Assembly: GCA_013336225.1 (NCBI GenBank)
Contig: JAAXUC010000004.1
Coordinates: forward strand, 32,421 to 96,420
From: Candidatus Moraniibacteriota bacterium
Lineage (GTDB): Bacteria; Patescibacteriota; Minisyncoccia; Moranbacterales; GWC2-37-73
DNA length: 64,000 nt
Direction of reading: 5' to 3'
Below the pieces are notes generated by a model. That model saw only the letters and a program-made list of their open reading frames with translations. It was not told where the DNA came from and made no database searches. A program made the translations under genes and the position numbers. Below, piece by piece: positions 2,297 through 34,069 of the stretch (positions are counted from its first letter, which is position 1; every line of letters begins with the position of its first letter).

Positions 2297-2346
2297 TTTA
2301 GTGGTGGATTGTTGATCAAGAGAAATTAACTATAGGCAAAAGCAAT

Positions 2347-3123: not shown

Positions 3124-3151
3124 ATTTTTTTCAAAATTATCCTCAAACAGA

Positions 3152-3811
3152 ATGTTGAATTATATTTTGCCGCCAATCATAATTGTTATCAGCATTTCAA
3201 TTTTGATAATGTTTCTTTTTCGCAAGGCTGCGCAAATTCCAGCGGGGGAGTTTGCCGTTGATGAGGACAATGGAAGAAATCATGAAAAAAATGCCACCAA
3301 GATGATGTCAGGGCTTGGGCAATTCGGCTTGAAAATCTTGGAAAGATTAATGCATCATTCGAAACTGCTTTCACTCAAATTTCACAATGTGAGCAATGTG
3401 TGGTTTCAGACAATTCGCGAAAAAAGAAAGCAAAGCGCGCAATTGCAAAAGGACAGGCAAGCTCAGCAGGAGGAGCAAGTAGCATTTTCTCGAAAGAGCA
3501 ATCTCAATGTTGATGTGCAAGCCGACAGCCTTGTTTTGCAAGAAAGGCAAACATTGAGGCCAATGGTGCGATCAACCATGACAATGCCGCAAAAGAATAA
3601 TGCCAAAGAAAAGAATCAGTTGGAGGACACTTTGATAAAAAGAATCGCCATCAATCCTAAGGATATTGAAGCTTATGAGCGATTAGGGGATTATTATCTG
3701 GAAAGTGAGAATTTTGGCGATTCATTGGAATGCTTTAAGCAAGTGCTGAAATTGAGCCCAGCTCATCACAAAGCCAGGCTGCGAATTAGAAGACTTGAAA
3801 AATTGAAATAG
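3152..3811 (+). CDS. hypothetical membrane-anchored protein with C-terminal TPR-like helix pair
   Basis: N-terminal TM helix (ILPPIIIVISISILIMFLF), Q/K-rich middle, C-terminal AYERLGDYYLESENFGDSLECFKQVLKLSP TPR-like region. Confidence 0.4.
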   Translation: MLNYILPPIIIVISISILIMFLFRKAAQIPAGEFAVDEDNGRNHEKNATKMMSGLGQFGLKILERLMHHSKLLSLKFHNVSNVWFQTIREKRKQSAQLQKDRQAQQEEQVAFSRKSNLNVDVQADSLVLQERQTLRPMVRSTMTMPQKNNAKEKNQLEDTLIKRIAINPKDIEAYERLGDYYLESENFGDSLECFKQVLKLSPAHHKARLRIRRLEKLK

Positions 3812-11452: not shown

Positions 11453-12082
11453 TTATGCAGTCATTTTGTTTGTGCGGCGTTTCCCGTACACTGCAATCCC
11501 AAGCAGGCCAACTGAAAACAGTGCCATGGTTCCTGGTTCAGGAACGGGTGCAACCGAAGTCATGTTTATGCCAATTTCGTTTAAACTGAAATCATTCCAG
11601 CAGAGATCTCCAGCCAGGACACTTACTTGAATCAGGCCATCCTTGAGATATTCTTCAAGTCCAGCTTGCTTGAGGTCAATGGTGAATATTTTGCTGGCAG
11701 GACTCATTTGAAACCAGGAAAAATTTCCCAAAAATAGAGTCTTGTCCAGGAGTTTCGTGTCTCCATCCATTGCTCCGGAAGAAATCACAATTCTTTCTGG
11801 CAAAAGATCTGCAGAAGAAATTGTGACTCCCAGGAGCGCAGACGTGATGCTTGAGCCTGGCAAAAATCCAAGAGCATCAGTTGTGGCTCCATTGGTTTGG
11901 TTTACGAAGTCAAAGTTAAAGACCGCGGACTGACCCTGCGATAGTGTTACACTTTGATTGCCATTTAAAAAAGCTTCCTGTTGAGTCATTGGCAGTGCGA
12001 ATGCCATCCCAGCTGTCATCAACATCATCAACATTACAATTAAAAAGTTTTTCATTAAAAATCTCCTTTTCGGTTGAACCAC
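11453..12082 (-). CDS. secreted protein with C-terminal PEP-CTERM sorting signal
   Basis: Signal peptide with basic n-region (KRRFLMKNFLIVMLMMLMTAGMAFA); C-terminus VPEPGTMALFSVGLLGIAVYGKRRTNKMTA = PEP motif + TM helix + basic cluster. Confidence 0.65.
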   Translation of the reverse strand: MVQPKRRFLMKNFLIVMLMMLMTAGMAFALPMTQQEAFLNGNQSVTLSQGQSAVFNFDFVNQTNGATTDALGFLPGSSITSALLGVTISSADLLPERIVISSGAMDGDTKLLDKTLFLGNFSWFQMSPASKIFTIDLKQAGLEEYLKDGLIQVSVLAGDLCWNDFSLNEIGINMTSVAPVPEPGTMALFSVGLLGIAVYGKRRTNKMTA

Positions 12083-12967: not shown

Positions 12968-12997
12968 GTTTGACAGGATTGATGGTGCGTGGTAATG
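12968..12997 (+). promoter_or_regulatory. candidate promoter (TTGACA -17- TAATGT) for the small Gly-rich ORF
   Basis: gtttgacaggattgatggtgcgtggtaatgttac. Confidence 0.35.
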
Positions 12998-13059
12998 TTA
13001 CACGTCAAGCACAGTGTGTTTGATTGATGGAAAATCCAGAAAGAAAGGGGGTGAGTTCA

Positions 13060-13173
13060 ATGGGTAAGGGCAGCGGTTCAGGAGGTCATGGAGGCGGCAA
13101 TGCTGGTTCTGGCGGTCAAAGTGGCGGCGGTGGCGGAAGTGCAGGCGGCGGAAGTGGCAGTCGTGGAAAATAG
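13060..13173 (+). CDS. small glycine-rich peptide (37 aa: MGKGSGSGGHGGGNAGSGGQSGGGGGSAGGGSGSRGK)
   Basis: Below the ORF-track cutoff. Strong SD aaagaaagggggtga 7 nt upstream of ATG, and a rho-independent terminator 30 nt downstream. The leader is identical over 15 nt to the leader of the 32839 small ORF. Confidence 0.5.
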   Translation: MGKGSGSGGHGGGNAGSGGQSGGGGGSAGGGSGSRGK

Positions 13174-13202
13174 TAAAAAAGTTGAATGTTCCATGATATG
13201 CA

Positions 13203-13236
13203 AAAAAGAAGCTCTTTTCGAAACCGAAAAGAGCTT
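13203..13236 (+). terminator. rho-independent terminator (aagaagctcttttcg-aaac-cgaaaagagcttc + T)
   Basis: 14-bp stem after the Gly-rich ORF. Confidence 0.6.
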
Positions 13237-13310
13237 CACTTTATTTACGAATGAGTAATAGTAGAAAAGACTTGATATTCTTTTGTATTAAACAGTGGTA
13301 TGATTAAGAT

Positions 13311-14579
13311 ATGAAACATAAGATTGAAAAATTGAAACTTGCCAATGGGGCAATGCTTGTGAATGTGATTGTGAAGAATTTGCCAATTACGATTGTTTCA
13401 GCTTGGTTTAGAGCTGGATCAAGATTTGATCAAAATGGCAAAGAGGGAACAGCACACTTGCTTGAACATCTTTTAATAAAAAGAACAAAAAAATATACAG
13501 ATACCATTGAAAGACTCAAGGACATTGAGTCTAATGGTATTAAATTCAATGCTTTTACAAGTTATGAGACCGCGCATTACTATTACACTCAGCCAAAAGC
13601 AGAGACATGTGGAGCCTTGGATTTTCTGATAGATGGCTTGGAAAATTATGCATTTAATGATGTTGATATTGAAGAAGAAAAAAAAGCCGTGATCAATGAA
13701 TTGATGGAAAACAGAGCAAATCCACGCGAATATATTTGGGAATTGTCCAATGGTTCTTTGTGGAATGGGTTGTCTATGGGAAAACAATTTTTTGGAAACA
13801 AAAAAAGCATAAAATCGATAAACAGAAAAGATTTGCAGGGCTTTATCGATAAATATTATACATCTGAAAATTGTTCATTTTTGGTTGTCGGTGATGGCAA
13901 TACTGAAAAAATCGGGAAATATTTGAATGCGAAACTTATACTTAATGATTCCAAAAAACCAAAACTAATAAAAGAAAAATCCGGCAAACCGAAAAAAATA
14001 TCAATCATTAATAATGATGAATCTCAGGCGATGATTTCAGTTGCTTTTAAAACACTTTCAATGGATGCTGATCCTTTGGAAATTGCTGTGATTGATTTTA
14101 TCCGAGATTATTTGGCAAACAATTGGACGTCAAAACTGATTGAAGAACTTCGCCTCAAGAAGAATGTGACATATTGGGTGGATGGGGCGTCAATTAATTT
14201 TTCAGATACTGGCATGCTCCGATTCACTTTTGCTTGCAATAAGAAAAATGTCACTGAATCCATAAAAATAGTGCTAGATGAGATTGAAAAGTTAAAAATA
14301 AATTCTTTTGATGATGGGGAACTTGCAATGCATAAAAAATCATTTTTGTCTTCAATGATCATGCGATTTGTTGATCCGTATGAATATTTGTGGTGGTATG
14401 GTTGGCAAGTCGTTGTTTCTGATGGAAAAAATGTGGTTAACGTTGAGGAATATTTAAAAATAATTCAGAAAATTAAAGGTGAGGACATTGCTCGCATTGC
14501 TTTGAAATATTTGAATAGAGAAAATATGTCCATTTCCATTATTGGCGATGTTGAAAAAGCTGATGTTATTCTTGCATAA
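13311..14579 (+). CDS. M16-family zinc metallopeptidase (pitrilysin/insulinase-like)
   Basis: Inverted zinc motif HxxEH in GTAHLLEHLLIKRT plus a downstream Glu region; ~420 aa two-domain layout. Confidence 0.8.
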   Translation: MKHKIEKLKLANGAMLVNVIVKNLPITIVSAWFRAGSRFDQNGKEGTAHLLEHLLIKRTKKYTDTIERLKDIESNGIKFNAFTSYETAHYYYTQPKAETCGALDFLIDGLENYAFNDVDIEEEKKAVINELMENRANPREYIWELSNGSLWNGLSMGKQFFGNKKSIKSINRKDLQGFIDKYYTSENCSFLVVGDGNTEKIGKYLNAKLILNDSKKPKLIKEKSGKPKKISIINNDESQAMISVAFKTLSMDADPLEIAVIDFIRDYLANNWTSKLIEELRLKKNVTYWVDGASINFSDTGMLRFTFACNKKNVTESIKIVLDEIEKLKINSFDDGELAMHKKSFLSSMIMRFVDPYEYLWWYGWQVVVSDGKNVVNVEEYLKIIQKIKGEDIARIALKYLNRENMSISIIGDVEKADVILA

Positions 14580-20868: not shown

Positions 20869-22110
20869 ATGAAACAATCACAACTATTCACCAAAACTAA
20901 AAAAGAAGCTCCATCAGATGAGGTGGCCAAGAACGCGCAACTTTTGATTCGCGCCGGTTTTATTCACAAAGAAATGGCTGGAGTGTATGCATATATGCCG
21001 CTTGGTCTGCGAGTGCTGGAAAACATTAAGCGTATTGTTCGCGAAGAAATGAATGCTGTCGGCGGTCAGGAATTGATGATGACAACCTTGCAACCCAAAG
21101 AAATTTGGGAGAAGACTGGTCGTTGGGATGATGCCAAGGTGGATAATTGGTTCAAGACTAAATTGGTTAATGGCACAGAACTTGGAGTGGGACTGACTCA
21201 TGAAGAACCAATTGTTGATGCTGTTAGCAACTATCTCAATTCATACAAGGGCATGCCATTTTCAGTGTATCAAATTCAGAATAAATTTAGAAATGAAAAA
21301 CGGGCCAAGAGCGGAATTTTGCGTGGACGCGAATTTTTGATGAAAGATATGTACACATTTTGCAAAGATCAAGAGCAGCATGAGCAGGAATATGAAAAGA
21401 TTGTGGCTGCATATCATCGTGTTTATGCGCGCCTAGGGTTGGGGGAAATCACATATCGCACCTATGCTGATGGAGGAATTTTCACGCCTCGTTTTAGCGA
21501 TGAATTCCAAACACTCACTGAGGTGGGAGAAGATACGATTTATGTTGATGAGAAAAAACGAATTGCAATCAATGAGGAAATTTTGACGGATGAGAACTTG
21601 AAAAAACTCGGCCTTGATCGCAATGATCTTGTGGCGAAAAAAGGCGTTGAAGTCGGAAACACTTTTCATTTGGAAAGCAAATATACTGACGCATTGGATT
21701 TGTTCTATATTGATGAAAAAGGTGAAAAGCAATCAATTTTGATGGGATGCTATGGAATTGGAGTTAGTCGCTTGATGGGAGTTGTTGCGGAACTTTTTTC
21801 TGATGACAAGGGCTTGGTGTGGCCGGAAAATGTTGCGCCGTTTGCTGTGCATCTTTTGAGTCTTGGACAAGATGAAGAAACTGAAAAAATTTGCATCGAA
21901 CTTGAAAAAAACGGAATTGAAGTTTTGTTTGATGATCGCGACGCACAGGCTGGTGCAAAATTTGCCGACTCAGATTTGATTGGAATTCCATGTCGAGTGG
22001 TTGTTAGTAAAAAATCTTTGGCTGCTGGGGGACTTGAAGTGAAAATGCGAAATGAAAGTGAAAGCAAGATTATGACAGTGGAGGAATTGTTGCAAATGCT
22101 AAAAAAGTAA
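20869..22110 (+). CDS. proS: prolyl-tRNA synthetase, short form lacking the INS editing domain
   Basis: N-terminus MKQSQLFTKTKKEAPSDEVAKNAQLLIRAGFIHK...GVYAYMPLG parallels bacterial ProRS; class II motifs and anticodon-binding C-terminus present. At 413 aa there is no room for the ~180-aa insertion domain. Confidence 0.85.
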   Translation: MKQSQLFTKTKKEAPSDEVAKNAQLLIRAGFIHKEMAGVYAYMPLGLRVLENIKRIVREEMNAVGGQELMMTTLQPKEIWEKTGRWDDAKVDNWFKTKLVNGTELGVGLTHEEPIVDAVSNYLNSYKGMPFSVYQIQNKFRNEKRAKSGILRGREFLMKDMYTFCKDQEQHEQEYEKIVAAYHRVYARLGLGEITYRTYADGGIFTPRFSDEFQTLTEVGEDTIYVDEKKRIAINEEILTDENLKKLGLDRNDLVAKKGVEVGNTFHLESKYTDALDLFYIDEKGEKQSILMGCYGIGVSRLMGVVAELFSDDKGLVWPENVAPFAVHLLSLGQDEETEKICIELEKNGIEVLFDDRDAQAGAKFADSDLIGIPCRVVVSKKSLAAGGLEVKMRNESESKIMTVEELLQMLKK

Positions 22111-22149
22111 TACGTATTGATTTGCGAAAATGTGCTAATATTTAATCAG

Positions 22150-22270
22150 TTATGGGTTAAATTCCCCTCGGCTTGCCGGGTGGAAAGTATCAAGAGAAAT
22201 TCCTCTTGATACCTCGTGCGCTTGCCACGAGGTAATTCATTGTTGTATTGATTGTACACATTTGCTTAAT
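22150..22270 (+). other. three consecutive stem-loops of unknown role (cggcttgccg; atcaagag-aaattc-ctcttgat; cctcgtg-cgcttgc-cacgagg)
   Basis: Direct reading; may be the 5' part (Stem I with AUC specifier) of the ileS T-box leader or a separate structured RNA. Confidence 0.3.
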
Positions 22271-22279
22271 TAAATAAAT

Positions 22280-22510
22280 AATGCTAGTATTATTTTAATA
22301 AAAAGATGAATTAAAAGCGTTTGAGGGAATATCAATCCCGAGCTGCAGGAAGAAATGTTTCAGTATATATGATACTTGTGACAAAATAGAACCTGTCGGA
22401 TAAGTCCGTTATAGCCGTTTGAGTCTGGTTGATATGAGAAATAACCAGAAAATTAAGGTGGCACCACGTTTCCAAGACGTCCTTATATCAAGGGATGTTT
22501 TTATTTTATT
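22280..22510 (+). promoter_or_regulatory. T-box riboswitch leader upstream of ileS
   Basis: T-box consensus AAATTAAGGTGGCACCACG at 22450-22468, followed by a terminator-like hairpin and T-run (22470-22508). An AUC Ile codon sits in a candidate specifier loop (gtATCaagaga). Confidence 0.6.
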
Positions 22511-22543
22511 TAAAATATTTTTAATTGTTTAATTTTAAATTTT

Positions 22544-25483
22544 ATGCAATTCAAGAAAGTAGATGCAAGAAAAAAATATTCAGAAATGGAGAAAGAAATA
22601 ATTCAATTTTGGAAAGATGATGGAACTTTCCAAAAATCCATTGAGCAAAAAAAAAATAATAAATATTTTAGTTTTTATGATGGTCCACCATTTATTACTG
22701 GTGTTCCACATTATGGAACATTGTTATCCTCTATCGTGAAGGATGCTGTTCCTAGATATTGGACAATGAAGGGATATCGTGTTGAGCGTCGATGGGGATG
22801 GGACTGTCATGGTCTTCCAGCTGAAAATATGGTGGAGAAGAAATTGGGAATCAAAAATAAACGTGAAATTGAGGAAAAAGTTGGTATTGCTACCTTTGTC
22901 GAGGAATGCATTAAGGAAACATCTCAAATTGCCTCTGAATGGGAAACTGTTATTGATAGAGTTGGTCGCTGGGTGGAGTTTAAAAATGCATACAAGACGA
23001 TGGATAAGAATTATATGGAATCCGTATGGTGGGCATTTTCGCAGCTTCACAAAAAAGGATTGATTTATGAAGATGTGAGAGTATCGCTATATTGTCCTAG
23101 ATGTTCAACGCCTTTATCAAATTTTGAAATTGCGATGGATAATAGCTATGAGATGGATAGTGATCCTTCAGTATATGTAAAAATGAAGATAAATGGTCAA
23201 GAAAATTCATATTTCTTGGTTTGGACAACAACTCCATGGACACTACTTGCTAATGTGGCCTTGGCTGTTGGCGGCGATATTGACTATGTTAAAGTTAGAT
23301 ATAATGATAAAAATGGCAATCCTGAATTTTTTATACTAGCTAAGAATGTATATGAGAAAAGAAGAGACGATTTTTTCCCTGGTGTTAAGAATCTTGGGCC
23401 AGATGAAGTTCCTCCAGTTGCATCAGAAATAGTTGAAGAATTTAAGGGCAATGATTTATTGATTAAGGAGTATGAATCAATATTCCCACATGAAATCGAA
23501 AACGGATATAAAGTAATTGCGGCAGATTTTGTTACAACTGATGATGGTTCGGGGATTGTGCATATCGCTCCAGCATTTGGAGAGGATGATTTTCAAGTTA
23601 GAAAGTCCAATGATTTACCAATAATCATGAATGTTAATGAAGAAGGTCAATTTACTGATGGACTATGGAGTGGACAGAAAGTTTGGGATGCTAATAATGA
23701 GATAGTTAAATGGCTCAAGGAAAACAATATACTTTTTAAGCGCGAACAGATTACACATAGTTACCCCCATTGTCATAGGTGTCATACAAAGCTTATTTAC
23801 AAAGCACAACCAGCTTGGTATGTGAATGTTTCAAAAATTCGTAAAGATTTGATTGCGGAAAACGAAAAAATAAATTGGTTTCCTGAATTTTTAAAACATG
23901 GTCGTTTTCAAAATGGTATTGAAGGTGCTCCAGATTGGAACATTTCTCGTGATCGTTATTTTGGAACAGCAATTCCAGTTTGGAAATGTGATGAATGTGA
24001 TGAAATGAAAGTTTTTGGGTCCTATGAAGAATTGAAAAATGCCTCTGGTATTGAGCTTGACGACTATCATCGTCCAAAGGTTGACGATGTTACTTTTGCT
24101 TGTGAAAAATGTCACGGTAAAATGAAGAGAATACCGCAAGTTTTTGATTCTTGGATTGAATCAGGCTCAATGCCGTTTGCTCAATTTCATTATCCATTTG
24201 AAAATAAAGAGGTTTTTGAAAAGAGTTTTCCTACGGACTTTATTTCAGAATATATTGCCCAAACAAGAGCTTGGTTTTATGTGCTGCACGTTCTTTCTGT
24301 GGGAATTTTTGGAAAAATAAGTTTCAAAAATGTTGTAACAACAGGAACAATTGCTGGAAATGATGGAAAAAAGATGTCAAAATCACTGGGGAATTATACG
24401 CTGCCCGATGTCGTTTTAGAGCAATACAGCGCTGATGCACTTCGACTTTATCTTTTGTCTTCACCGCTACTCAATGCTCAAAATATTAGTTTTTCAGAGA
24501 AATCCATACAAGATATTCAAAGAAAGGTATTGTCAACGCTTTGGAACAGCTATGCTTTCTTTACTCTCTATGCTGATGTTGATAAGTGGACGCCAAAAAA
24601 TAATGCTGGTTCTCCAGCCGATTCTGATAATCTTTTGGATCTTTGGATCGTGTCTGAGCTAAACAAGCTTATTAGAGAGGTTGATACTAATATGGAAGCA
24701 TACGAATTAGTAAAAGCAATCAGACCCTTTGAGAATTTTGTTGATAACTTATCAAACTGGTATATTCGTCGAAGTCGTAAACGTTTTTGGCGAAGTGAGA
24801 ATGATGATGATAAAGGCAATGCGTATCAAACCTTGCACTATGTGTTAGTTACTCTTTCAAAAATAATGGCGCCATTTGCACCATTTATATCTGAAGAGAT
24901 TTATAAGAATTTAACCGGATTGGAATCTGTTCACTTGGAAGATTTTCCTATTGCTGATGCAAAAAGAATAGATGAGGAACTGAACAACAATATGAGTGAT
25001 TTGCGTGAAATTATAACAATAGGTTTGCAAGATCGCGCAAAAAACAAAATTAAGGTTAGACAACCGTTGAGTGGAGTTTTTCTTGGTCAGAAATATAGTA
25101 AAGTCTTCAATGAAACTATAAACAAGCCAGAGTGGAGTATTATTTTAACAGAAGAGTTAAATGTGAAAGGTGCAACACTTGGAACCGAAACGGAAACTGT
25201 AGCAATTGATTCAAATATTACTGCAGAGCTTAAGCTTGAGGGTCAGGCAAGGGAAATCGTTCGTTATATCCAAGAAATGCGTAAGGAGGCTGGTTATGAA
25301 GTTGATAACCATATTATTGTGGGTTATTCCGGGGTAGAGGAAGTCTTTAATGAATTTGGAGATCTTATATCTAGGGAAATATTAGCGGATAAAATACAAT
25401 CTAATAATTTGCCCGAATATGACTTACAAAAAGAGTTCACATTTGATGAGAAAGTGTTTTCAATTACAATAAAAAAACTGTAA
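22544..25483 (+). CDS. ileS: isoleucyl-tRNA synthetase
   Basis: Class I HIGH-region variant PHYGT, KMSKS (KKMSKSLGN), CP1 editing domain and Zn-binding C-terminus; 979 aa. Confidence 0.95.
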   Translation: MQFKKVDARKKYSEMEKEIIQFWKDDGTFQKSIEQKKNNKYFSFYDGPPFITGVPHYGTLLSSIVKDAVPRYWTMKGYRVERRWGWDCHGLPAENMVEKKLGIKNKREIEEKVGIATFVEECIKETSQIASEWETVIDRVGRWVEFKNAYKTMDKNYMESVWWAFSQLHKKGLIYEDVRVSLYCPRCSTPLSNFEIAMDNSYEMDSDPSVYVKMKINGQENSYFLVWTTTPWTLLANVALAVGGDIDYVKVRYNDKNGNPEFFILAKNVYEKRRDDFFPGVKNLGPDEVPPVASEIVEEFKGNDLLIKEYESIFPHEIENGYKVIAADFVTTDDGSGIVHIAPAFGEDDFQVRKSNDLPIIMNVNEEGQFTDGLWSGQKVWDANNEIVKWLKENNILFKREQITHSYPHCHRCHTKLIYKAQPAWYVNVSKIRKDLIAENEKINWFPEFLKHGRFQNGIEGAPDWNISRDRYFGTAIPVWKCDECDEMKVFGSYEELKNASGIELDDYHRPKVDDVTFACEKCHGKMKRIPQVFDSWIESGSMPFAQFHYPFENKEVFEKSFPTDFISEYIAQTRAWFYVLHVLSVGIFGKISFKNVVTTGTIAGNDGKKMSKSLGNYTLPDVVLEQYSADALRLYLLSSPLLNAQNISFSEKSIQDIQRKVLSTLWNSYAFFTLYADVDKWTPKNNAGSPADSDNLLDLWIVSELNKLIREVDTNMEAYELVKAIRPFENFVDNLSNWYIRRSRKRFWRSENDDDKGNAYQTLHYVLVTLSKIMAPFAPFISEEIYKNLTGLESVHLEDFPIADAKRIDEELNNNMSDLREIITIGLQDRAKNKIKVRQPLSGVFLGQKYSKVFNETINKPEWSIILTEELNVKGATLGTETETVAIDSNITAELKLEGQAREIVRYIQEMRKEAGYEVDNHIIVGYSGVEEVFNEFGDLISREILADKIQSNNLPEYDLQKEFTFDEKVFSITIKKL

Positions 25484-25526
25484 ATGTGCATATAGGAGCA
25501 ATCTTTAATGATTATAACCTCGTCTT

Positions 25527-25558
25527 AAAAAGTAGCCACTAAGTGGCTACTTTTTTTT
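25527..25558 (+). terminator. rho-independent terminator (aaaaagtagccac-taa-gtggctacttttttttt)
   Basis: Perfect 11-bp stem plus T9 after ileS. Confidence 0.7.
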
Positions 25559-25608
25559 GCGCCTTTTGGGGCGTTGATGTATGTCATTATGGGATATATT
25601 ATCATTAC

Positions 25609-25672
25609 TTGACATTAATTAGCGATAGCAATAGAATAAGATCATATTAAAGGTTAACTTATAGGTTAACTA
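25609..25672 (+). promoter_or_regulatory. promoter (TTGACA -17- TAGAAT) followed by a tandem GGTTAACT palindromic pair (candidate operator) upstream of the HTH-XRE gene
   Basis: -35 at 25609-25614, -10 at 25632-25637; ggttaact at 25652-25659 and 25664-25671 (GTTAAC is self-complementary). Confidence 0.5.
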
Positions 25673-25678
25673 CTATGT

Positions 25679-26707
25679 ATGCTTATTGAATCAAAAATTA
25701 TTGGTATAAATATTAAAAAGCAAAGGCTTTTGAATAAGATGTCACAAGTTGATGTTGGAAATCTTTTAAGTACTACAAAATCTTATATATGTAGCTTGGA
25801 GCGTGGTAATAGGAACCCTTCTTTGAAAACTTTAAAAAAAATAGCACTTATCTTCAATGTACCCGTAGAAATTCTTTTGAGGGGTAATGATATAGCTGAT
25901 TCAAAATATCAAAAGATAAGGGATGATAAATTTCAGCAATTTGAGAAGAAGATAAAAAATTGGAATATTACTTCACAGAAAAAATGGTGCAATTTTTTCA
26001 TCGATGAAGAAAGTATGTTTTTCAATAAAAATAGAATTAATCAGATAAAGACTATAGTGAAAAGATATGCTGATAATAAAAACTTATCAGTTATAGATTC
26101 GTCATGTGGAACTGGAAGACTTACGGAATTACTTGCAAAAGATGGCTTTAAAAAAATATATGGAATTGATGCCAATCCATATGTTGTAGAGATAGCAAGA
26201 GAGCAAGCAATACAAAAAGCATTAATGATAAACTATGATATATCTATTCCGCCAAGTTTTGAAAAAAAAGTATTTGATGTGGTTTTTAACATAGGAACAT
26301 CGATAGGGTATTTGCAAAGTGAGGAGGATAATTTTGAGAATATCAGAAGAATAAGTTGTTTAGTCAGTAGGGGTGGAAAAATAATAATTGAGGCAGTTAA
26401 TCCTATTGGGATATTGCGTAATTTTAGTTCAAGCGAAACACTTAAATTGGATGGAAAGAAGCGATCATATCAACGTTTTTTTGATGTAAGGAGTTCAACA
26501 AGTATTGAAAATGTTATTGATACTTATGATAATAAAAAACAAATTGAATATTTTAGCAGTATTCGATTATTTTTTCCCCACGAATTAATATCTATTTTTT
26601 TGAATAGTGGGTTTATTTTAGTTGATCTGCTTGATAATAATTTAACCAGGAAAAATACCGTTAATTCACCTAGGCTATGGTATATTTTTCAGAAAAAAAA
26701 TGTTTAA
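25679..26707 (+). CDS. HTH-XRE (Cro/C1-type) DNA-binding domain fused to a class I SAM-dependent methyltransferase domain
   Basis: N-terminus QVDVGNLLSTTKSYICSLERGNRNPSLKTLKKIALIFNVPVEILL = XRE HTH; C-terminal motif I VIDSSCGTGRLT, post-I GIDANP, motif II FDVVFN. Confidence 0.7.
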   Translation: MLIESKIIGINIKKQRLLNKMSQVDVGNLLSTTKSYICSLERGNRNPSLKTLKKIALIFNVPVEILLRGNDIADSKYQKIRDDKFQQFEKKIKNWNITSQKKWCNFFIDEESMFFNKNRINQIKTIVKRYADNKNLSVIDSSCGTGRLTELLAKDGFKKIYGIDANPYVVEIAREQAIQKALMINYDISIPPSFEKKVFDVVFNIGTSIGYLQSEEDNFENIRRISCLVSRGGKIIIEAVNPIGILRNFSSSETLKLDGKKRSYQRFFDVRSSTSIENVIDTYDNKKQIEYFSSIRLFFPHELISIFLNSGFILVDLLDNNLTRKNTVNSPRLWYIFQKKNV

Positions 26708-27797
26708 TTTTATTGGTAAAATGCAATTTCATCAGAATAAAATAAATTCTCTCCTTGAGGATAGAATTGAAAATTCACTAACTACTGTCTTTATTGATCT
26801 GGTTAGCGGTGTTTGTAATCATAAGTGTGTGTTTTGTGATGGAAATTTTAATCCAATAAAAAAGCTAATTTTTTCCAAGAGTAAGTTGCTTGAAATAGCT
26901 AATGATCTTGGTGATATGAATGTTGATTCCGTGATTATGGTTGGCGAGGGTGGAGAATCATTATTGAATCCCAATTTTTGTTTTTTTTCAAAGAAATTGT
27001 TGGATAAAAAAATTCATCTTGGAATGTATACGAACGGTGGCATGTTGAATAAGAAAAATCTCGGTGTTATTTCAAGGTTTGATTTTATTAGAATTTCTTT
27101 GGACTCTGGATCATCGATAACTCATCAGCAAGTGCATGGGTATGAGGATAGAGATGATTTTAATAAGATATTTGAATCAATTGAATATTTAAGAAAAAGA
27201 AGCAAAATACAAATAGGATCATCATTCTTGCTATTACCACAGAACGTAGATGATTTATATGAGGCTGCAAAGAGATTAAAGGAGGCTGGTGCGAATTATA
27301 TAGAGGTTAGGCCAGCATATTTAAGGGATTACGGCTTTGATTTAAAGGCTTTTAAATCGATAAAGGATCGTTTCTTATACCAATTGGATAAAATGGACGT
27401 CCTAAATGATGATAGCTTTAAGGTGATTATTAATAATCAGTTAAAGGAGATAATTAAAAATAAAAAAACAATTCGTGGTGATGTTACAAGGTTGAAAAGA
27501 TCAAGAAATTGTTTAACTTGTAGGTTGAGATTAGTTGTGAGTCCAACGGGATGTTATATTTGTCCACCAAATAGAAGTAAAGAAGATTTTCGCATAGGTG
27601 ATATTTGGAATAATCCTTTACGTAGCATTTGGAATAATAGGGAACATTTGGATAAGATTAATAAAAAATGTGATTTAAAATGTCCTTACCATAAGCAAAA
27701 TAATTTTTTAATTAAATTAAAGAAAAATAATTTAATTTTTGATGATAAGTGCTTGCTGCCAGCTGGCAAATTAATTACTCAGAAAAATTTTCTATAA
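26700..27797 (+). CDS. radical SAM enzyme with C-terminal SPASM/twitch-like Cys-rich domain
   Basis: CX3CX2C (VSGVCNHKCVFCDG); C-terminal CLTCRLRL...GCYICPP...GDIWNNPLRSIWNN...CDLKCPYH resembles SPASM auxiliary-cluster motifs; overlaps the upstream gene by 8 nt. Confidence 0.8.
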   Translation: MFNFIGKMQFHQNKINSLLEDRIENSLTTVFIDLVSGVCNHKCVFCDGNFNPIKKLIFSKSKLLEIANDLGDMNVDSVIMVGEGGESLLNPNFCFFSKKLLDKKIHLGMYTNGGMLNKKNLGVISRFDFIRISLDSGSSITHQQVHGYEDRDDFNKIFESIEYLRKRSKIQIGSSFLLLPQNVDDLYEAAKRLKEAGANYIEVRPAYLRDYGFDLKAFKSIKDRFLYQLDKMDVLNDDSFKVIINNQLKEIIKNKKTIRGDVTRLKRSRNCLTCRLRLVVSPTGCYICPPNRSKEDFRIGDIWNNPLRSIWNNREHLDKINKKCDLKCPYHKQNNFLIKLKKNNLIFDDKCLLPAGKLITQKNFL

Positions 27798-27801
27798 AAA
27801 T

Positions 27802-28899
27802 ATGATAAAACCTATAAACTTTACAAAATATTATAAAGAAATTTTATCAGAATTGATGCTAGCATTTAGCGAGTTTATTTTAAGTGGGCAATATATCGGA
27901 GGTAAATTGGTGGAAAAATTTGAAGATAAAGTTAAAAAATATTTGGGTGCTAAACATGCAATAGGATGTAAGAGCGGAACACATGCTCTTCAGCTTGCGC
28001 TTTTAGCTGCTGGTGTTGAGAAAGGTGATGAAGTTATTACGGTTGCTAATACATATTACGCAACGGTATATGCAATTACTGCTGTAGGAGCAACGCCAAT
28101 TTTTTGTGATATTTTACCAGAAAATGGGCAAATTGATCATAATAAAATTGAAGCTAAAATTACTAAAAAAACAAAGGTTATTTTGCCAGTTCATTTGTAT
28201 GGGATACCTGTTAATTTGGGGGAAATTAGAAAAATTTGCAAAAAATATAAGTTAATATTAATTGAGGATTGTTCTCATGCATTTGGAACAAGGTTAAATG
28301 GTGAATATATAGGAAGTGATTCAGATTTTGGATGCTTTAGTATGTATCCAACAAAAAATCTCGGTGCTTTTGGTGATGCTGGATTTATAACAACAAAAAA
28401 TAAGAAATATGAAAGCAAGATTCGCGAATTGATTTATTTGACAGATGCTAAGCGGGTAAAATTTAATCCAAAAGCTATTCATGCTATGCTGGATCCTCTT
28501 CAGGCAGCCTTGCTTTTGGTAATGCTAGATAAGATGGATCAAGCACGCAAAGATAGAATTGAGAGAGCGGATGAATATAGGAAAAATCTAGAGGAATATA
28601 TCAGGATAAGTAAGGTTGGAAGTGATAGTGTTGTGAATCCTCACATGTTCCCAATTTTTATTAAAAATAGGAACAAGTTGATAAAATTTTTGGCAGATTC
28701 CTCTGTGCATGTGCAAGTTCATTATCCAACCAATCTGCATTGTCTGTCACAGTTTGGATCATACGCCAAAGGGTATCTCCCAGAAACGGAGAGGCACAAT
28801 AGAGAAGAGGTCAGTCTTTCTGTTCATCCATCTGTTTCAATATCTGAAGTTAAGAAAATATGTAAATTAATTAAGCAGTATGTCGAAATTAACAAATAG
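27802..28899 (+). CDS. DegT/DnrJ/EryC1/StrS-family PLP-dependent (sugar) aminotransferase
   Basis: Family N-terminus GGKLVEKFEDKVKKYLGAKHAIGCKSGTHALQLAL; PLP-Lys motif FSMYPTKNLGAFGDAGFI. Confidence 0.8.
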   Translation: MIKPINFTKYYKEILSELMLAFSEFILSGQYIGGKLVEKFEDKVKKYLGAKHAIGCKSGTHALQLALLAAGVEKGDEVITVANTYYATVYAITAVGATPIFCDILPENGQIDHNKIEAKITKKTKVILPVHLYGIPVNLGEIRKICKKYKLILIEDCSHAFGTRLNGEYIGSDSDFGCFSMYPTKNLGAFGDAGFITTKNKKYESKIRELIYLTDAKRVKFNPKAIHAMLDPLQAALLLVMLDKMDQARKDRIERADEYRKNLEEYIRISKVGSDSVVNPHMFPIFIKNRNKLIKFLADSSVHVQVHYPTNLHCLSQFGSYAKGYLPETERHNREEVSLSVHPSVSISEVKKICKLIKQYVEINK

Positions 28900-29884
28900 A
28901 AAGAAAATTGTTGTTTTGGTTCTTGGATTTAGGGCGCTTTCTTTTATTAAGAAGGGTTATTTAGCGTCAATTATTAAGGCTGCCGATAAAATAAAAAATG
29001 CAAAAGTTGATATTGTTTATCTTGATAATTATTCAAGAGATGGATCAGTACCATACATCATGAAAAATTATAAAAATATCGATCTATTATCTGCGACTGA
29101 AAATTATTTTTACTGTAAGGGTGTAAATGTCGGTTTGCAATTTTCATATCAAAAATATAGACCAGATTACTTTATGCTTGTAGATGCTGATAATCCATGT
29201 GAAGAGAGCGCTTATGGTAAGTTGATTGATTTTGCAAATAAAAATGCAAAAGTGGGAATTGTTCAGCCGCTAGTTAAGGGTCTAAGTGATTCAAATAGAG
29301 TATATTCATGTGGGCACGTATATGAAAATGGTATTTCATGTAGGCCATTAAGAGAAATCCCAAAAAACAAAAAAATATTATTAAATCTTCAAAGTTGTTC
29401 AATATCATCAACACTTGTCAAAACAAAGGTTTTTGAAAAATGTGGTTTGCTTGATCCTATTTTCAAGATTTATTATGAAAGTAGCGACTTATCATTCAGA
29501 GCAAGAAAAGCGGGCTTCTTGTGTGCTTGCCATGTTGAGGCTGTGTGTTTTAATGAGGGTGCAAAAGTTTCAAAAACTGATAATTTTCATGAGGGTTATT
29601 TTAGAAATAGAAACAATTTAATTTTCTGGAAAAAACATGATAATGAAAAATATGAAATTTTAAAAAAGATATATCAAGAAAGGCATAAGCAATTAAATGT
29701 AAAATTGGCTAATTTGAAATATGTCACAGACATGGAAGAGGAGAGTGAGCGAAGGGGGATTGAGGACGGCATAAAAATTACTAAAAAAATGGTTGCAGGT
29801 ATCAAGAATGAAGAGAGGATAGATAAATTTGATAAAACTGATGCTATTGTGATTCAGGAAGCATGCAAAAATAATGAAAAATAA
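28880..29884 (+). CDS. family 2 glycosyltransferase
   Basis: GT2 motifs DIVYLDNYSRDGS, DxD (LVDADN), and YESSDLSFRARKAGF (ED-DLS-R-R-AG). Confidence 0.65.
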   Translation: MSKLTNRKKIVVLVLGFRALSFIKKGYLASIIKAADKIKNAKVDIVYLDNYSRDGSVPYIMKNYKNIDLLSATENYFYCKGVNVGLQFSYQKYRPDYFMLVDADNPCEESAYGKLIDFANKNAKVGIVQPLVKGLSDSNRVYSCGHVYENGISCRPLREIPKNKKILLNLQSCSISSTLVKTKVFEKCGLLDPIFKIYYESSDLSFRARKAGFLCACHVEAVCFNEGAKVSKTDNFHEGYFRNRNNLIFWKKHDNEKYEILKKIYQERHKQLNVKLANLKYVTDMEEESERRGIEDGIKITKKMVAGIKNEERIDKFDKTDAIVIQEACKNNEK

Positions 29885-32150
29885 CATGTCAAAATCATTT
29901 CATCTTTTCTTATTGAAATTTTTCTATTCCATGTTATGCATTAAGGATTATTTCATGATGGGTTTTGAAATCAAAAAGCTTAAGAAGATAGCCAGCAAAT
30001 CAGTAGACACATTGCAATTTAATGATAAATTGAATGAAAATATCGTTGTTGGTGTGGACGAAAAAGAAGGATATTATATTGATTCAAAAAAGCCATCTTA
30101 TTACAAGAAGCACTTTAATGATTTTTTTCATAATGATTTGTATGGTAAATATAGATCAGATGAAAATATTATTTTAAGTACTGGTGCTCTTAATCAGGAT
30201 GAATTTTGTCTTCCGCGTTCGTTGAAATTTGCCATAAGCTATGCTCTTACGAGAAATTGGTATGGTTATTCTTGCAGCTTAGGTAGGGAATCAGCTCGCT
30301 TGGCTATAGCTGATCTGGAAAACCATAAAATTAATAGCAATATCTACAATGAAAATAATGTAGCATTGATACAGGGTGTTACGGCCGGATTATTTCACTT
30401 ATTATCATTTTTGAAAGAGAGAGAGGAAGATGGTAACTTCGGCATTTTGACGCATTATCCAACTTACGTGCCTTTTGCAGCAACTTGCGAAAAAATCGCA
30501 CCCACAAAAATAATAAATTTTTTTGGTGATAAAAAATTTAGCATCGAAGCGTTTAAGCGAAATATAGATAAAACAACAAAGGTGATTTTATTGCTTGGAG
30601 ATTTTAATCCATTAGGAAAACTTATGGATGTTTCTTTTGTTAATGAATTGATTGATATTTGTGATGAGAAGTCGATATATCTTATTATTGATGAGGCTGG
30701 TTCAAAATATCCGGAAAATAATTGGAATAATTTGAAAAATAGTGATTTCTTAATCAGGATGGATAGCTTATCTAAAAAAGTTTCAGTTCCTGGTATGAAA
30801 TTGGGATATTTTATTGCAAATGAGGAGATAATCTCTGAATTTTATGAGCGAGCATCAACAACCTATGGTGGCCCATCATCTTTTTTTTACATCCTACAAG
30901 AACTTGATGCAAGGTTCGATCTTTTTTTCCGCAAGGGTTTGCTTAAGATTGGATCAGGAGAGTTGGCATTATTTGATAAAAATTACAATCTAGGATTATT
31001 TTTTTTGAATATTCTCTATGGTCAATATATTAAAAATAAACATTTTTTTGAGTTAAAAATAAAACAGCATCGCAGTATCGTTATTGATAAGCTTATCAGT
31101 CATCATCCTCAATTGGTGAAAAAAATAATCATGCCAGAAACTGGTATTAATATTTTTTTGCAATTAGATGTCGATTACGGCAGTTATGAATTTTTCAGAA
31201 AATTGATAGTTGAAAAAAGGACAGCAGTTTTTCCGGGACTTTGTTCTGCTACAGATAAAGAATGCTGGATAAGAATAACATGTGGTGTTGATAAAAAAAC
31301 TTTGCAAACTGGTTTGGATAATTTGGTTGATTTTCTTAAGACTGAGTGGATCAAGAAACAAATACAAAAAGAGCCATTTTTTGAAAAATTACTTCTTGAT
31401 TTTGGTCAGTATGGGAGTTATGGTTACTTGTCATTTTTTGAACACATTTATGATGTTCAAAAAAATGGAATGAAAATATTGGATATTTTTGAGCTGAAAA
31501 CTAGAAGAAAGTTGGATCGTGATTTACTTAGGGAGGTGATATTTTGTCATGATGCTGGGAAAGTTGTGAGTGTGATAGTGTTTCGAATTATGAGAATTTT
31601 GCAACTTCAAAAAAAATATGGAAAAATCCCATTTTCAGTTTTTTCTAAATTGAGAGACGAGGATTTACTGTTTTTGCGAAAGGAAATAGTGGATTGTTTT
31701 GTTTTTACAAAAGAATATTTTTACGAAATGTTTCCATTTTTGCATGATTATTCTGAATTAATGAATTTAGATAGTGATAAATATCTTAAAGATACCGTCT
31801 TTACTGAGAAGATGCTTCAGCTTGCTCTGGATAAATATCCAAATTATGAGAAAAAAATAGAAGAAATGAAATTTATAATATTGAACAATTCCGCAAAAAT
31901 TAATATCAATAATTTAATGATTGGATATAATCCGTATATTTTCATTTTGGATTTTGCAGATAAAATTGCTGATTATAATCTTCCAGAAGAACCAACTCTG
32001 GCAAAAATAGATGAACTTTTGAGAAAAAAGAAAAAATATGTAATTAAACGATATTGTCATAATAATCGATCCATGGAAGCTATTGTCCATTGCGAGTTTA
32101 GTCATCTGTATGAGCTAATTAGGGAATCAAGAGTTTTTCATAAATGTTAA
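29874..32150 (+). CDS. fusion protein: class I/II PLP aminotransferase domain + C-terminal putative HD-type phosphohydrolase domain
   Basis: Aminotransferase PLP-Lys motif SLSKKVSVPGMKLGYFIAN (cf. SFSKxxxxxGxRxGY); C-terminal H...HDAGK (FEHIYD...VIFCHDAGKV) resembles HD-domain motifs I and II. Confidence 0.55.
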   Translation: MKNNMSKSFHLFLLKFFYSMLCIKDYFMMGFEIKKLKKIASKSVDTLQFNDKLNENIVVGVDEKEGYYIDSKKPSYYKKHFNDFFHNDLYGKYRSDENIILSTGALNQDEFCLPRSLKFAISYALTRNWYGYSCSLGRESARLAIADLENHKINSNIYNENNVALIQGVTAGLFHLLSFLKEREEDGNFGILTHYPTYVPFAATCEKIAPTKIINFFGDKKFSIEAFKRNIDKTTKVILLLGDFNPLGKLMDVSFVNELIDICDEKSIYLIIDEAGSKYPENNWNNLKNSDFLIRMDSLSKKVSVPGMKLGYFIANEEIISEFYERASTTYGGPSSFFYILQELDARFDLFFRKGLLKIGSGELALFDKNYNLGLFFLNILYGQYIKNKHFFELKIKQHRSIVIDKLISHHPQLVKKIIMPETGINIFLQLDVDYGSYEFFRKLIVEKRTAVFPGLCSATDKECWIRITCGVDKKTLQTGLDNLVDFLKTEWIKKQIQKEPFFEKLLLDFGQYGSYGYLSFFEHIYDVQKNGMKILDIFELKTRRKLDRDLLREVIFCHDAGKVVSVIVFRIMRILQLQKKYGKIPFSVFSKLRDEDLLFLRKEIVDCFVFTKEYFYEMFPFLHDYSELMNLDSDKYLKDTVFTEKMLQLALDKYPNYEKKIEEMKFIILNNSAKININNLMIGYNPYIFILDFADKIADYNLPEEPTLAKIDELLRKKKKYVIKRYCHNNRSMEAIVHCEFSHLYELIRESRVFHKC

Positions 32151-32166
32151 TATAATTTTAAAAAGT

Positions 32167-32748
32167 ATGATCAAGATGGAATATTTTATTAAAAAAATTG
32201 TTGATATATTAAGCAAAAAAGGCTTGGAAGATAAGGAAATTTCCAATATCATGCTTACTTCCAATGAAACACTTATTAATGAGATAGCTGATGTCATTTT
32301 TGATTTTATGAATCGTGGAAAAAAAATAATATACAATGTGCAAGTTGATTATTCTAAAAATGTGGAGGAGATGGTTGAGATTACAATGCATGAATGGGCT
32401 AATGAAGACATCACCTCGGAACATTTCCTTAATATCAGGGGTAAATCCGCAGAAGTGAGTGTTGAGCTTATACATTTCAATCGAAGCATCCTAAGCGATG
32501 ATGCACTTCTTGAGATGAGTGCTATGGGTTATCGTGCGGCTAATATGCAGGAATTCTTGGCATTTGGTGCGAAATATCCTGATCTGCAACGCAAATTTCC
32601 AATTGTGGGATTGGGGTCAGTTTGGCACAGTGAAGACAGTCATCTTGTTGCATATATGAGCTGGGGAGCTTCTGGCCGTTACCTCCATTTGTGGCATCTT
32701 GATCTTGTTTGGGGTGACGGTTGTCGTTTTGCTGCCGTTAAAGAATAA
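32167..32748 (+). CDS. hypothetical protein (193 aa), last gene of the AT-rich operon
   Basis: No motif recognised; distinctive HLWHLDLVWGDGC C-terminus. Confidence 0.35.
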   Translation: MIKMEYFIKKIVDILSKKGLEDKEISNIMLTSNETLINEIADVIFDFMNRGKKIIYNVQVDYSKNVEEMVEITMHEWANEDITSEHFLNIRGKSAEVSVELIHFNRSILSDDALLEMSAMGYRAANMQEFLAFGAKYPDLQRKFPIVGLGSVWHSEDSHLVAYMSWGASGRYLHLWHLDLVWGDGCRFAAVKE

Positions 32749-32838
32749 TTATTTTTAATGGCATATGAGGTTGTGGATATTCTGAAAAGGTAATATATAT
32801 TGAAAGCAGAATAAATCAAAAAGAAAGGGGGTGATGAT

Positions 32839-32985
32839 ATGCTAGATGGAAATCCTTGGGTTGGGGCAGCTATGAGTGGACACTACAATTACAAAGAAGC
32901 AGCGCCTATGTTTATATTTGCTGTAGTTATTGTTTGTGTGTTGCTTGTTATTGGTGTGGTAGTTTTTTTAAAAGAAAGAAAATAA
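32839..32985 (+). CDS. small membrane peptide (48 aa: MLDGNPWVGAAMSGHYNYKEAAPMFIFAVVIVCVLLVIGVVVFLKERK)
   Basis: Below the ORF-track cutoff. SD aaagaaagggggtga identical to the 13060 ORF leader. Single TM helix followed by KERK; hairpins follow (32990-33015 and 33079-33122). Confidence 0.5.
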   Translation: MLDGNPWVGAAMSGHYNYKEAAPMFIFAVVIVCVLLVIGVVVFLKERK

Positions 32986-33078
32986 CTATTATTATCATCT
33001 TTGATGATAATAATAAGGCAGTAGGCCCTTGTTGACAGTGATGGGTGAAAATTATTATTGCGCTGCATTTTGAAAAAT

Positions 33079-33122
33079 TGAAAACCGATATTTGGCTATT
33101 ATGCAAAATATCGGTTTTATTT
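33079..33122 (+). terminator. rho-independent terminator (gaaaaccgatattt-ggctattatgca-aaatatcggttttatttttt)
   Basis: 14-bp stem plus T-run; closes the AT-rich operon. Confidence 0.6.
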
Positions 33123-33138
33123 TTTCATATTGCATGGG

Positions 33139-33167
33139 TTGCTTTTTTTGCTGATGCTGGATATAAT
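33139..33167 (+). promoter_or_regulatory. candidate promoter (TTGCTT -17- TATAAT) for ispH
   Basis: Hexamers at 33139-33144 and 33162-33167. Confidence 0.45.
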
Positions 33168-33196
33168 TGGGCGAATAAGCAGTGTCGAAAAAAATA

Positions 33197-34069
33197 ATGA
33201 AAATTACATTAAGTGCGTATGCTGGTTTTTGCGAAGGTGTGGAGCGGGCATATGATATTGTGGAAAAAATCGCCAAAGACCCGCTGGTAAAGCGGCCTAT
33301 TTTTGTGTTGGGCTCCTTGGTGCATAACGACGATGTGGTGCAGCGAATTGAGGACATGGGTGTCAGGAAAGTGCACGTGGAAGGTCCACTGGAAGAGTTC
33401 TTTGAGAAAATAAAAGGGGAGGTGGGAACTTTGGTCATCACGGCTCATGGCATTGGACCAAAAATATATGAGTTGGCCAAAAAATATGAAGTTGATTTGG
33501 TAGACACAACTTGTCCGCGCGTTATCAAGGTGCAAAGATTGGCCAAAGCTTTTTTTGATCGCAATACACAAATTGTGATTATTGGCGAAAGAAATCATAA
33601 GGAAGTTAAGGGAATTTATGAATGGGCCAATAAGCAAGCAATTTTCATTGAAACTGATGAAGATCTTTGTGGTTTCGATGTTGATCCAAAAAAGAAATTG
33701 GCAGTGATTTCTCAGACCACACAAGATCAGGAATTTGTCGATCGCGCAGCTGCGCAAATTTCCAAAAAATATCCGCACGCCCAAGTGGTGGATTCAATTT
33801 GCCTCACCACTCATCATCGTCAAACCGAAATCAAGCAGCTTGCCAAAGAAAATGATGTGGTAATTGCGATTGGTTCGCCTGAAAGTGCCAATTCCACGCG
33901 TCTTTGGGAAATTGCTCAAAGGGTTAATCCTTCCTCATATTTCATTCAGCGGGCGGCTGATCTTGAAAATGCTTGGTTTCTTGATTGCAAAAGTGTGGCA
34001 GTTACTGCGGGTGCAAGTACGCCAAAATGGATTATAGATGAGGTTATAAACAGATTGGAGACCTTATAG
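33197..34069 (+). CDS. ispH: 4-hydroxy-3-methylbut-2-enyl diphosphate reductase (IspH/LytB)
   Basis: MKITLSAYAGFCEGVERA (cf. MKIxLAxPRGFCAGVDRA) and conserved Cys/His positions. ATG 33197 is preferred over the GTG at 33182. Confidence 0.8.
   Translation: MKITLSAYAGFCEGVERAYDIVEKIAKDPLVKRPIFVLGSLVHNDDVVQRIEDMGVRKVHVEGPLEEFFEKIKGEVGTLVITAHGIGPKIYELAKKYEVDLVDTTCPRVIKVQRLAKAFFDRNTQIVIIGERNHKEVKGIYEWANKQAIFIETDEDLCGFDVDPKKKLAVISQTTQDQEFVDRAAAQISKKYPHAQVVDSICLTTHHRQTEIKQLAKENDVVIAIGSPESANSTRLWEIAQRVNPSSYFIQRAADLENAWFLDCKSVAVTAGASTPKWIIDEVINRLETL

Follow-up and report, generated by a model that had tools for sequence, protein, structure and literature searches.

The locus and its predicted transcript

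The locus described here lies in a 64-kb window (the whole stretch of DNA that was analysed, 64,000 nucleotides long) from a metagenome-assembled genome of Candidatus Moranbacteria (CPR/Patescibacteria). A 48-codon open reading frame (ORF) sits within the 433-nt gap between the stop codon of a 193-aa gene, p193 (at 32748), and lytB/ispH (Table 1). Its predicted product, hereafter the peptide, carries the NCBI label hypothetical protein (HGA36_02355 / NTW27141.1), and a contig identical to the source is present in run SRR11449212. The ORF had been pointed out in an earlier, sequence-only reading of the window, whose translation matches exactly, and whose estimate of about 90 nt between the last operon gene and the ORF turned out to be precisely 90 nt. 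An in-frame TAA at 32812-32814 lies eight codons 5' of the ATG; the ORF is therefore not extendable upstream and is not the tail of a larger protein.

Upstream of p193 lies an AT-rich cassette of five genes, encoding an HTH-methyltransferase, a radical-SAM enzyme, a DegT-family aminotransferase, a GT2 glycosyltransferase and a 758-aa class I/II PLP-aminotransferase fusion. The GC content of the cassette is 30.5%, compared with 36.1% for the peptide gene, 37.8% for p193 and 37.8% for the whole window. A promoter-like site at 25609-25637 ahead of the cassette matches at 11 of 12 positions, and no terminator-like site was found between p193 and the peptide ORF. The peptide gene is predicted to be the last cistron of a transcript that would run from 25609-25637 to near 33125, possibly with a contribution from a weak promoter of its own. 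Own-promoter candidates at 32774-32801 and 32721-32749 reach only 9 of 12 positions, and promoter-like matches in the region occur at chance level (50 found, 44.2 expected). The earlier reading placed the peptide at the 3' end of the AT-rich operon; in composition the gene is window-like and does not resemble the AT-rich cassette.

The two hairpins that had been noted behind the ORF are both real. The first, a perfect A/U-rich stem (−12.1 kcal/mol, z −5.1; none of 200 shuffles as stable), is followed by no U-run on the plus strand, and a T-rich run lies behind it on the minus strand. The second is an intrinsic terminator (fold of 33064-33135: −27.6 kcal/mol, z −6.8), which probably forms the 3' end of the predicted operon-plus-peptide transcript. 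A search of Rfam at E ≤ 1 placed no RNA family at the peptide and returned two chance-level matches elsewhere in the region.

Table 1. Positions of the features discussed, in window coordinates unless a contig is named.
Feature	Sequence	Position	Strand	Remarks
Second leader copy	window	13032-13054	+	followed by the 37-aa Gly-rich ORF, 13061-13174
ileS plus cassette	window	22544-32150		
Five-gene cassette	window	25679-32150	+	AT-rich
p193 (193-aa gene)	window	32167-32748	+	C-type-lectin fold; DGR variable protein family
Leader and ribosome-binding site of the peptide	window	32813-32834	+	core AAAGAAAGGGGGTGA at 32820-32834
48-codon ORF	window	32839-32985	+	ATG start; product MLDGNPWVGAAMSGHYNYKEAAPMFIFAVVIVCVLLVIGVVVFLKERK
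A/U-rich hairpin	window	32987-33015		13-bp perfect stem, 3-nt loop; 2 nt after the stop codon
Intrinsic terminator	window	33081-33125	+	stem 33081-33118; AAAACCGAUAUUU pairs with AAAUAUCGGUUUU, then AUUUUUU
p193 homologue	L012	1443-2025		reverse transcriptase 2419-3483
p193 homologue	L013	1192-1792		reverse transcriptase 2122-3189
TTG 'ORF' 3' of p193 homologues	L009; L010; L011; L012	2848-2988; 1676-1816; 1502-1642; 1596-1730		
ileS plus cassette	L014; L016; L138; L139	958-10560; 4590-14299; 3915-12307; 1-8456		

Leader and coding signals

A striking feature of the ORF is its leader. Some 14 nt of the core are complementary to the standard 16S 3' tail, and its GGGGG run ends 7 nt before the peptide ATG, an ideal spacing. 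If this organism has the standard tail, the leader, with GGGGGUGA as its pairing sequence, forms a duplex of −22.8 kcal/mol with the anti-Shine-Dalgarno (anti-SD), the strongest on either strand of the window. The second-best site (−21.3 kcal/mol) is an identical 15-mer in front of a 37-aa Gly-rich ORF at 13061; the two strongest anti-SD sites on both strands of the window thus each precede a tiny intergenic ORF. Among the 54 large genes, the best SD duplex is −14.8 kcal/mol and most lie above −5 kcal/mol, values that may understate SD strength because starts were taken from the longest ORF. Since most large genes stay above −5 kcal/mol, the genome appears largely to dispense with SD sequences. 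Under these conditions the peptide would be translated efficiently by SD-dependent initiation, and the other genes mostly without an SD. Folding of 32800-32870 is no more stable than that of shuffled versions (z +1.19), and the minimum-free-energy structure leaves the SD unpaired.

The sequence-only reading had proposed that the leader is shared with the Gly-rich ORF. This sharing is real, and rarer than had been supposed, the genome being SD-poor. The core occurs at exactly two sites in the window (13040 and 32820), even when two mismatches are allowed, and its shuffled versions gave a mean of 0.30 matches, with two or more in 2 of 100 shuffles. The similarity extends over 23 nt with one gap.

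The region of the second copy (12969-13250) looks self-contained, comprising a TTGACA −35 element, the leader, the ORF and a terminator of its own. The product of this ORF is MGKGSGSGGHGGGNAGSGGQSGGGGGSAGGGSGSRGK; its codon score is +0.38, and its terminator hairpin reaches −21.6 kcal/mol (z −4.8). A gene for an M16 peptidase (13311-14579) lies just downstream. The exact 37-aa protein is absent from a collection of 15 billion proteins, which indicates that no gene caller has recorded the ORF.

Beyond the window, no comparable leader site stands ahead of a small ORF at the Moranbacteria and cassette loci. An exact metagenome scan for AAAGAAAGGGGGTGA N4-5 ATG yielded at least 120 matches in unrelated contigs (L017-L136) of varied GC content, and about 60% of the matches listed open ORFs shorter than 100 aa, the counts being unnormalised. 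None of the ORFs behind the matches listed resembles the 48-aa peptide, and the scan is uninformative on the peptide itself. Many of them look like real micro-proteins, being lysine-rich, Cys-rich or single-helix; one, in contig L046, is a Gly-rich-plus-helix peptide (MSSGGYGGGGYGSGFALLVVLFILLIIVGAAFLY). These unnormalised matches do no more than hint at an enrichment of very strong SDs ahead of small ORFs. A more ambitious proposal is that the leader of about 23 nt (AAATC..AAAGAAAGGGGGTGA) is a portable expression or regulatory module for lineage-specific micro-proteins, with the 48-aa and 37-aa products as a co-regulated pair. Such co-regulation could involve, for example, a common leader-binding RNA or protein, or privileged recruitment of ribosomes; we consider the proposal quite doubtful. 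The membrane peptide might have been born de novo from G+T-rich intergenic DNA after leader capture.

Two further intrinsic signals come from the ORF itself. In frame, its codon log-odds score comes to +0.33 bit per codon, as opposed to −0.40 and −0.10 in the two alternative frames; among real genes cut into 48-codon windows, this lies at the 59th percentile. This score is matched by 2 of 231 spurious ORFs of 40–80 aa and by none of the 98 on the plus strand. The predicted helix has a mean Kyte–Doolittle value of 3.58 over 19 residues, which none of the 231 spurious ORFs reaches despite the G+T-rich strand. The length of the ORF is uninformative and not above chance, because four rival ORFs of 50–59 aa overlap in the same intergenic region; their codon scores run from −0.33 to +0.09, and they have no SD. 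As SD, codon usage and hydrophobic helix are three independent intrinsic signals that set the ORF apart, it is probably translated, and we favour reading it as a real gene, restricted to its lineage, for a bitopic membrane protein of 48 residues.

The main competing explanation is that the ORF is not expressed. The operon would then end here in a 3' untranslated tail, or the stretch would be intergenic DNA of recent origin whose G+T-rich run gives a hydrophobic frame by chance; the SD-like 15-mer would have another role or none. On the plus strand here, G does outnumber C strongly and T is abundant, a composition that favours codons for Val, Phe, Leu and Gly. The overlapping rival ORFs and the chance-level promoter matches fit this explanation as well, as do the complete orphan status of the peptide across protein, metagenome and viral searches and its absence from the nearest relative of the operon, both described below. 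On the other hand, the explanation has to accommodate an ATG placed 7 nt behind the strongest SD of the window, codon usage found in fewer than 1% of spurious ORFs, a helix more hydrophobic than that of any of the 231, and the same leader preceding a second compact ORF with its own terminator. SD, codon usage and helix together are hard to obtain by chance, and a silent ORF therefore seems unlikely to us. If the peptide is expressed, it would offer a clean case of SD-dependent initiation kept for tiny ORFs in an SD-poor genome.

Conservation and genomic neighbours

No homologue of the peptide was recovered at any scale of search, so that it is seen in this one Candidatus Moranbacteria genome alone. 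Word-indexed searching across 5.8 billion proteins recovered nothing but the peptide, and exhaustive phmmer against 1.84 billion representatives returned the peptide and one repeat-driven match, P0068 (E 3.6e-5), a 1,964-aa protein with IG_AIR9 Ig-like repeats. The latter match covers 19 residues at 42% identity (G.P.VG...GHY.Y), recurring in the IG_AIR9 repeats. It was treated as chance because its score adds up copies of one short motif that are not independent of each other. Nor did a homologue turn up when metagenome and viral contigs were scanned with peptide patterns, or in tblastn of the peptide against all retrieved loci.

Five Moranbacteria contigs share the lytB neighbourhood, with lytB 66–82% identical, and ileS, the operon and the peptide are absent from all five. 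Among Moranbacteria, the interval from a prolyl-tRNA-synthetase-like gene to lytB (20869-33197) is a variable hotspot. L003 and L004 have ABC-transporter genes there and L006 has a 599-aa gene of another kind; L005 has nothing, and the window has ileS, the cassette, p193 and the peptide gene. The left edges of the island (22100-22560, 25470-25690) have no direct repeats in common with its right edge (32740-33200), and no tRNA gene was found near the island. The sequence-only reading had made the case for the gene depend on conservation in related genomes, and the closest operon-bearing relative lacks the ORF. This absence from relatives counts against a conserved function, not against expression here.

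The cassette itself recurs. It is complete in the CPR contigs L014 and L016, and a third contig, L015, ends inside the radical-SAM gene. The closest of them is L014, in which the cassette proteins are 67–76% identical and ileS, at 80%, lies directly upstream. A variant with two DegT-family genes and no called radical-SAM gene has the same layout (L138/L139). The recurring cassettes end with an aminotransferase of about 770 aa, and after this last gene neither p193, nor the peptide, nor any small hydrophobic ORF was found in L014, L015, L016, L138 or L139. Absent from the other cassettes and window-like in GC, p193 and the peptide gene are best seen as having been joined locally to the 3' end of the operon.

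This distribution bears on the earlier suggestion that an adjacent radical-SAM/SPASM enzyme has the peptide as its substrate or partner, and on the reading of the peptide as a RiPP precursor. Far from being adjacent, the radical-SAM gene (26700-27797) has its end 5,042 nt before the peptide ORF. The SPASM assignment is plausible. The enzyme has CX3CX2C at residues 39/43/46 and seven C-terminal cysteines, and it shows weak full-length similarity to SPASM peptide maturases; its best NCBIfam matches, at 50 and 43 bits, fall well below the cut-offs of 380 and 340, and Pfam recognises the Radical_SAM core only. Together with a shared predicted transcript, the C-terminal cysteines and the weak similarity would allow for a precursor. 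However, the enzyme stands among a methyltransferase, a DegT aminotransferase and a GT2 glycosyltransferase, which is a sugar or small-molecule context, and the peptide has a single Cys and no recognisable leader/core organisation. Since the cassette elsewhere, including L014, L015 and L016, is always without the peptide, a role as RiPP substrate is not supported, and we hold it to be extremely improbable; a tempting but wrong reading is thereby removed.

Two observations concern the cassette rather than the peptide. Leaving aside L015, whose contig is cut, ileS lies right beside the aminosugar/aminotransferase cassette at four separate CPR loci that carry it, three times on the upstream side and once on the downstream side; in Moranbacteria relatives that lack the cassette, ileS is missing from the locus as well. 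The linkage might reflect, for instance, self-resistance to a product that targets IleRS, or simply joint transfer. Furthermore, the 758-aa aminotransferase fusion has a homologue, 45% identical, at positions 10001-12316 of L137 (Paenibacillus sp. T2-29, CP178917.1), inside an NRPS/PKS cluster and next to a phosphodiesterase-family protein and an HAD hydrolase. This setting hints that the fusion acts on a small-molecule intermediate.

The immediate upstream neighbour of the peptide gene is p193. Its AlphaFold model has a pLDDT of 92.5, nearly all of the top PDB matches are C-type lectin domains, and the protein has no signal peptide or membrane segment. The 66 homologues are all CPR or metagenomic and stand in unrelated contexts; their alignment has a conserved scaffold followed by a hypervariable GSVW...CRFAAVRK tail, and the C-terminal 45 or so residues of p193 (GSVW...CRFAAVKE) correspond to the variable region (VR). 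In contigs L012 and L013, the last 117–135 nt of the homologue recur, 85% identical, 466 nt further downstream, and every VR/TR mismatch falls at an adenine of the template repeat, TR (18/18 in L012, 20/20 in L013). An Avd-like ORF on the opposite strand and then an RVT_1 reverse transcriptase lie beside the homologue in both contigs, and in L141 (4001-6536) a homologue stands beside bAvd and RVT_1 genes. Mismatches confined to adenine, Avd and reverse transcriptase are the signature of a diversity-generating retroelement (DGR) in these contigs. No template repeat or reverse transcriptase for p193 was found within the 64-kb window, so that the p193 described here may be either an orphan DGR-type protein or a target acted on in trans. 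The possibility that the peptide ORF is itself a relic template repeat was rejected, the best alignment of 32500-32748 with 32749-33181 scoring 22.0, equal to the shuffle mean of 22.0.

A conserved 'ORF' of about 45 codons with a TTG start (MKSLVPFFISQKFLIFAKCDKIK...) lies just 3' of p193 homologues, with or without a DGR. Following the variable region, it is probably a conserved non-coding element and not a gene.

One might propose that the peptide is a membrane partner which tethers or relays p193, the pair having arrived as a two-gene module of about 830 nt at the 3' end of the cassette. Both genes are missing from every other copy of the cassette, both are window-like in GC and unlike the cassette, and they lie 90 nt apart with no terminator between them. 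At other p193 homologues, however, no small hydrophobic ORF occurs downstream in the DNA of L009-L013, nor is one called in L140, L141 and the ENA contigs. A conserved p193–peptide pairing is thus not supported, and we regard the partnership as very unlikely. Under the preferred reading, a lineage-restricted membrane protein gene, the peptide would be co-expressed with the sugar-modification cassette and the lectin-fold p193, yet evolutionarily independent of them.

Membrane topology and comparison with known systems

The peptide begins with a polar stretch of about 22 residues, continues with a hydrophobic helix, likewise of about 22 (PMFIFAVVIVCVLLVIGVVVFL), and closes with a KERK tail; one of its tryptic fragments is MLDGNPWVGAAMSGHYNYK. 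The architecture described in the sequence-only reading (polar N-terminus, one transmembrane helix, KERK) is hence borne out by the sequence and by the hydrophobicity score. The C-terminal flank of the helix carries a charge of about +2 (ignoring the terminal carboxylate), and the N-terminal flank near the helix about 0. By the positive-inside rule, the acidic/neutral N-terminal 22 or so residues would be outside and the KERK tail cytoplasmic. This predicted N-out/C-in topology follows from a weak charge bias; the layout is typical of short proteins that need no signal peptide. Our best guess is that the peptide serves as a small accessory or modulatory membrane protein.

Other functions had been suggested as well, namely a type I toxin, a holin-like or a bacteriocin-like peptide. 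A membrane-damaging product of this kind, held in check by an antisense RNA or by immunity, would suit a hydrophobic peptide of fewer than 60 aa. The hairpin behind the ORF, with its T-rich run on the minus strand, and weak minus-strand promoter-like matches at 33038-33010 and 33035-33007 (9 of 12 positions) near the 3' end of the ORF could belong to such an antisense RNA. However, these minus-strand hexamers overlap the hairpin, and promoter-like matches in the region are, as noted above, at chance. The SD is exposed and not sequestered, the peptide is single-copy and without relatives, and its helix is C-terminal, behind a long polar N-terminus; helix placement in Hok, Fst, TisB and BsrG is unlike this. 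Phage, transporter and immunity context is missing as well: no endolysin, phage gene, C39-peptidase ABC exporter or Gly-Gly leader lies nearby. A holin was rejected on the grounds that the neighbours are p193 and lytB/ispH, with no phage genes and no endolysin, and a class II bacteriocin on the grounds that the peptide has no GG motif and the examined neighbourhood no ABC exporter. We consider a membrane-damaging role highly improbable. The likeness to Hok, Fst, TisB, TxpA and BsrG lies in small size, hydrophobicity, intergenic position and nearby hairpins; the differences lie in the antisense RNA signal, which does not rise above chance, in the open ribosome-binding site and in the lack of paralogues.

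The succession of KEAAP, a hydrophobic helix and KERK resembles the tripartite C-terminal sorting signals of PEP-CTERM and LPXTG proteins. The peptide was rejected as such a signal, as no sorting-signal model in Pfam or NCBIfam matches at E ≤ 10 and the 48-aa ORF is free-standing; the same searches at E ≤ 10 returned noise only (MAPEG 0.019, FliL 0.06). Elsewhere in the window, a 209-aa secreted protein (11453-12082, minus strand) carries a bona fide PEP-CTERM signal (Pfam E 8.5e-7), which implies an exosortase-type system in this CPR genome.

Taken as a gene, the peptide is an ordinary orphan small membrane protein gene and brings no new mechanism or new kind of system. If expressed, it would add another lineage-specific micro-protein to the Candidate Phyla Radiation (CPR), whose small proteome is essentially uncharted. 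The surroundings matter more than the peptide, with an orphan DGR-type variable protein on a sugar-modification operon and an aminosugar cassette by ileS.

In topology, the peptide resembles the major coat protein of phage Pf3, which has 44 aa, adopts an N-out/C-in orientation and is inserted without a signal peptide. Both run from a short acidic/neutral N-terminal tail through one helix to a basic C-terminal tail, and neither has a cleavable signal. Unlike Pf3, the peptide has no phage context in the window and no sequence similarity to the coat protein, and its basic tail is much shorter, with 4 residues and a net charge of about +2. In size and setting, the peptide may be compared with AcrZ, MgrB, KdpF and CydX, bacterial small membrane proteins of fewer than 50 aa that modulate larger membrane complexes. 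In these proteins the helix is mostly near the N-terminus and the partner complexes have been identified, whereas the helix of the peptide is C-terminal, after a polar segment of 22 residues, and the peptide has no identifiable partner and no sequence similarity to them. What it has in common with these proteins is its similar size, a single helix, a gene that lies inside an operon or closes it, and conservation of sequence that does not reach past a narrow lineage.
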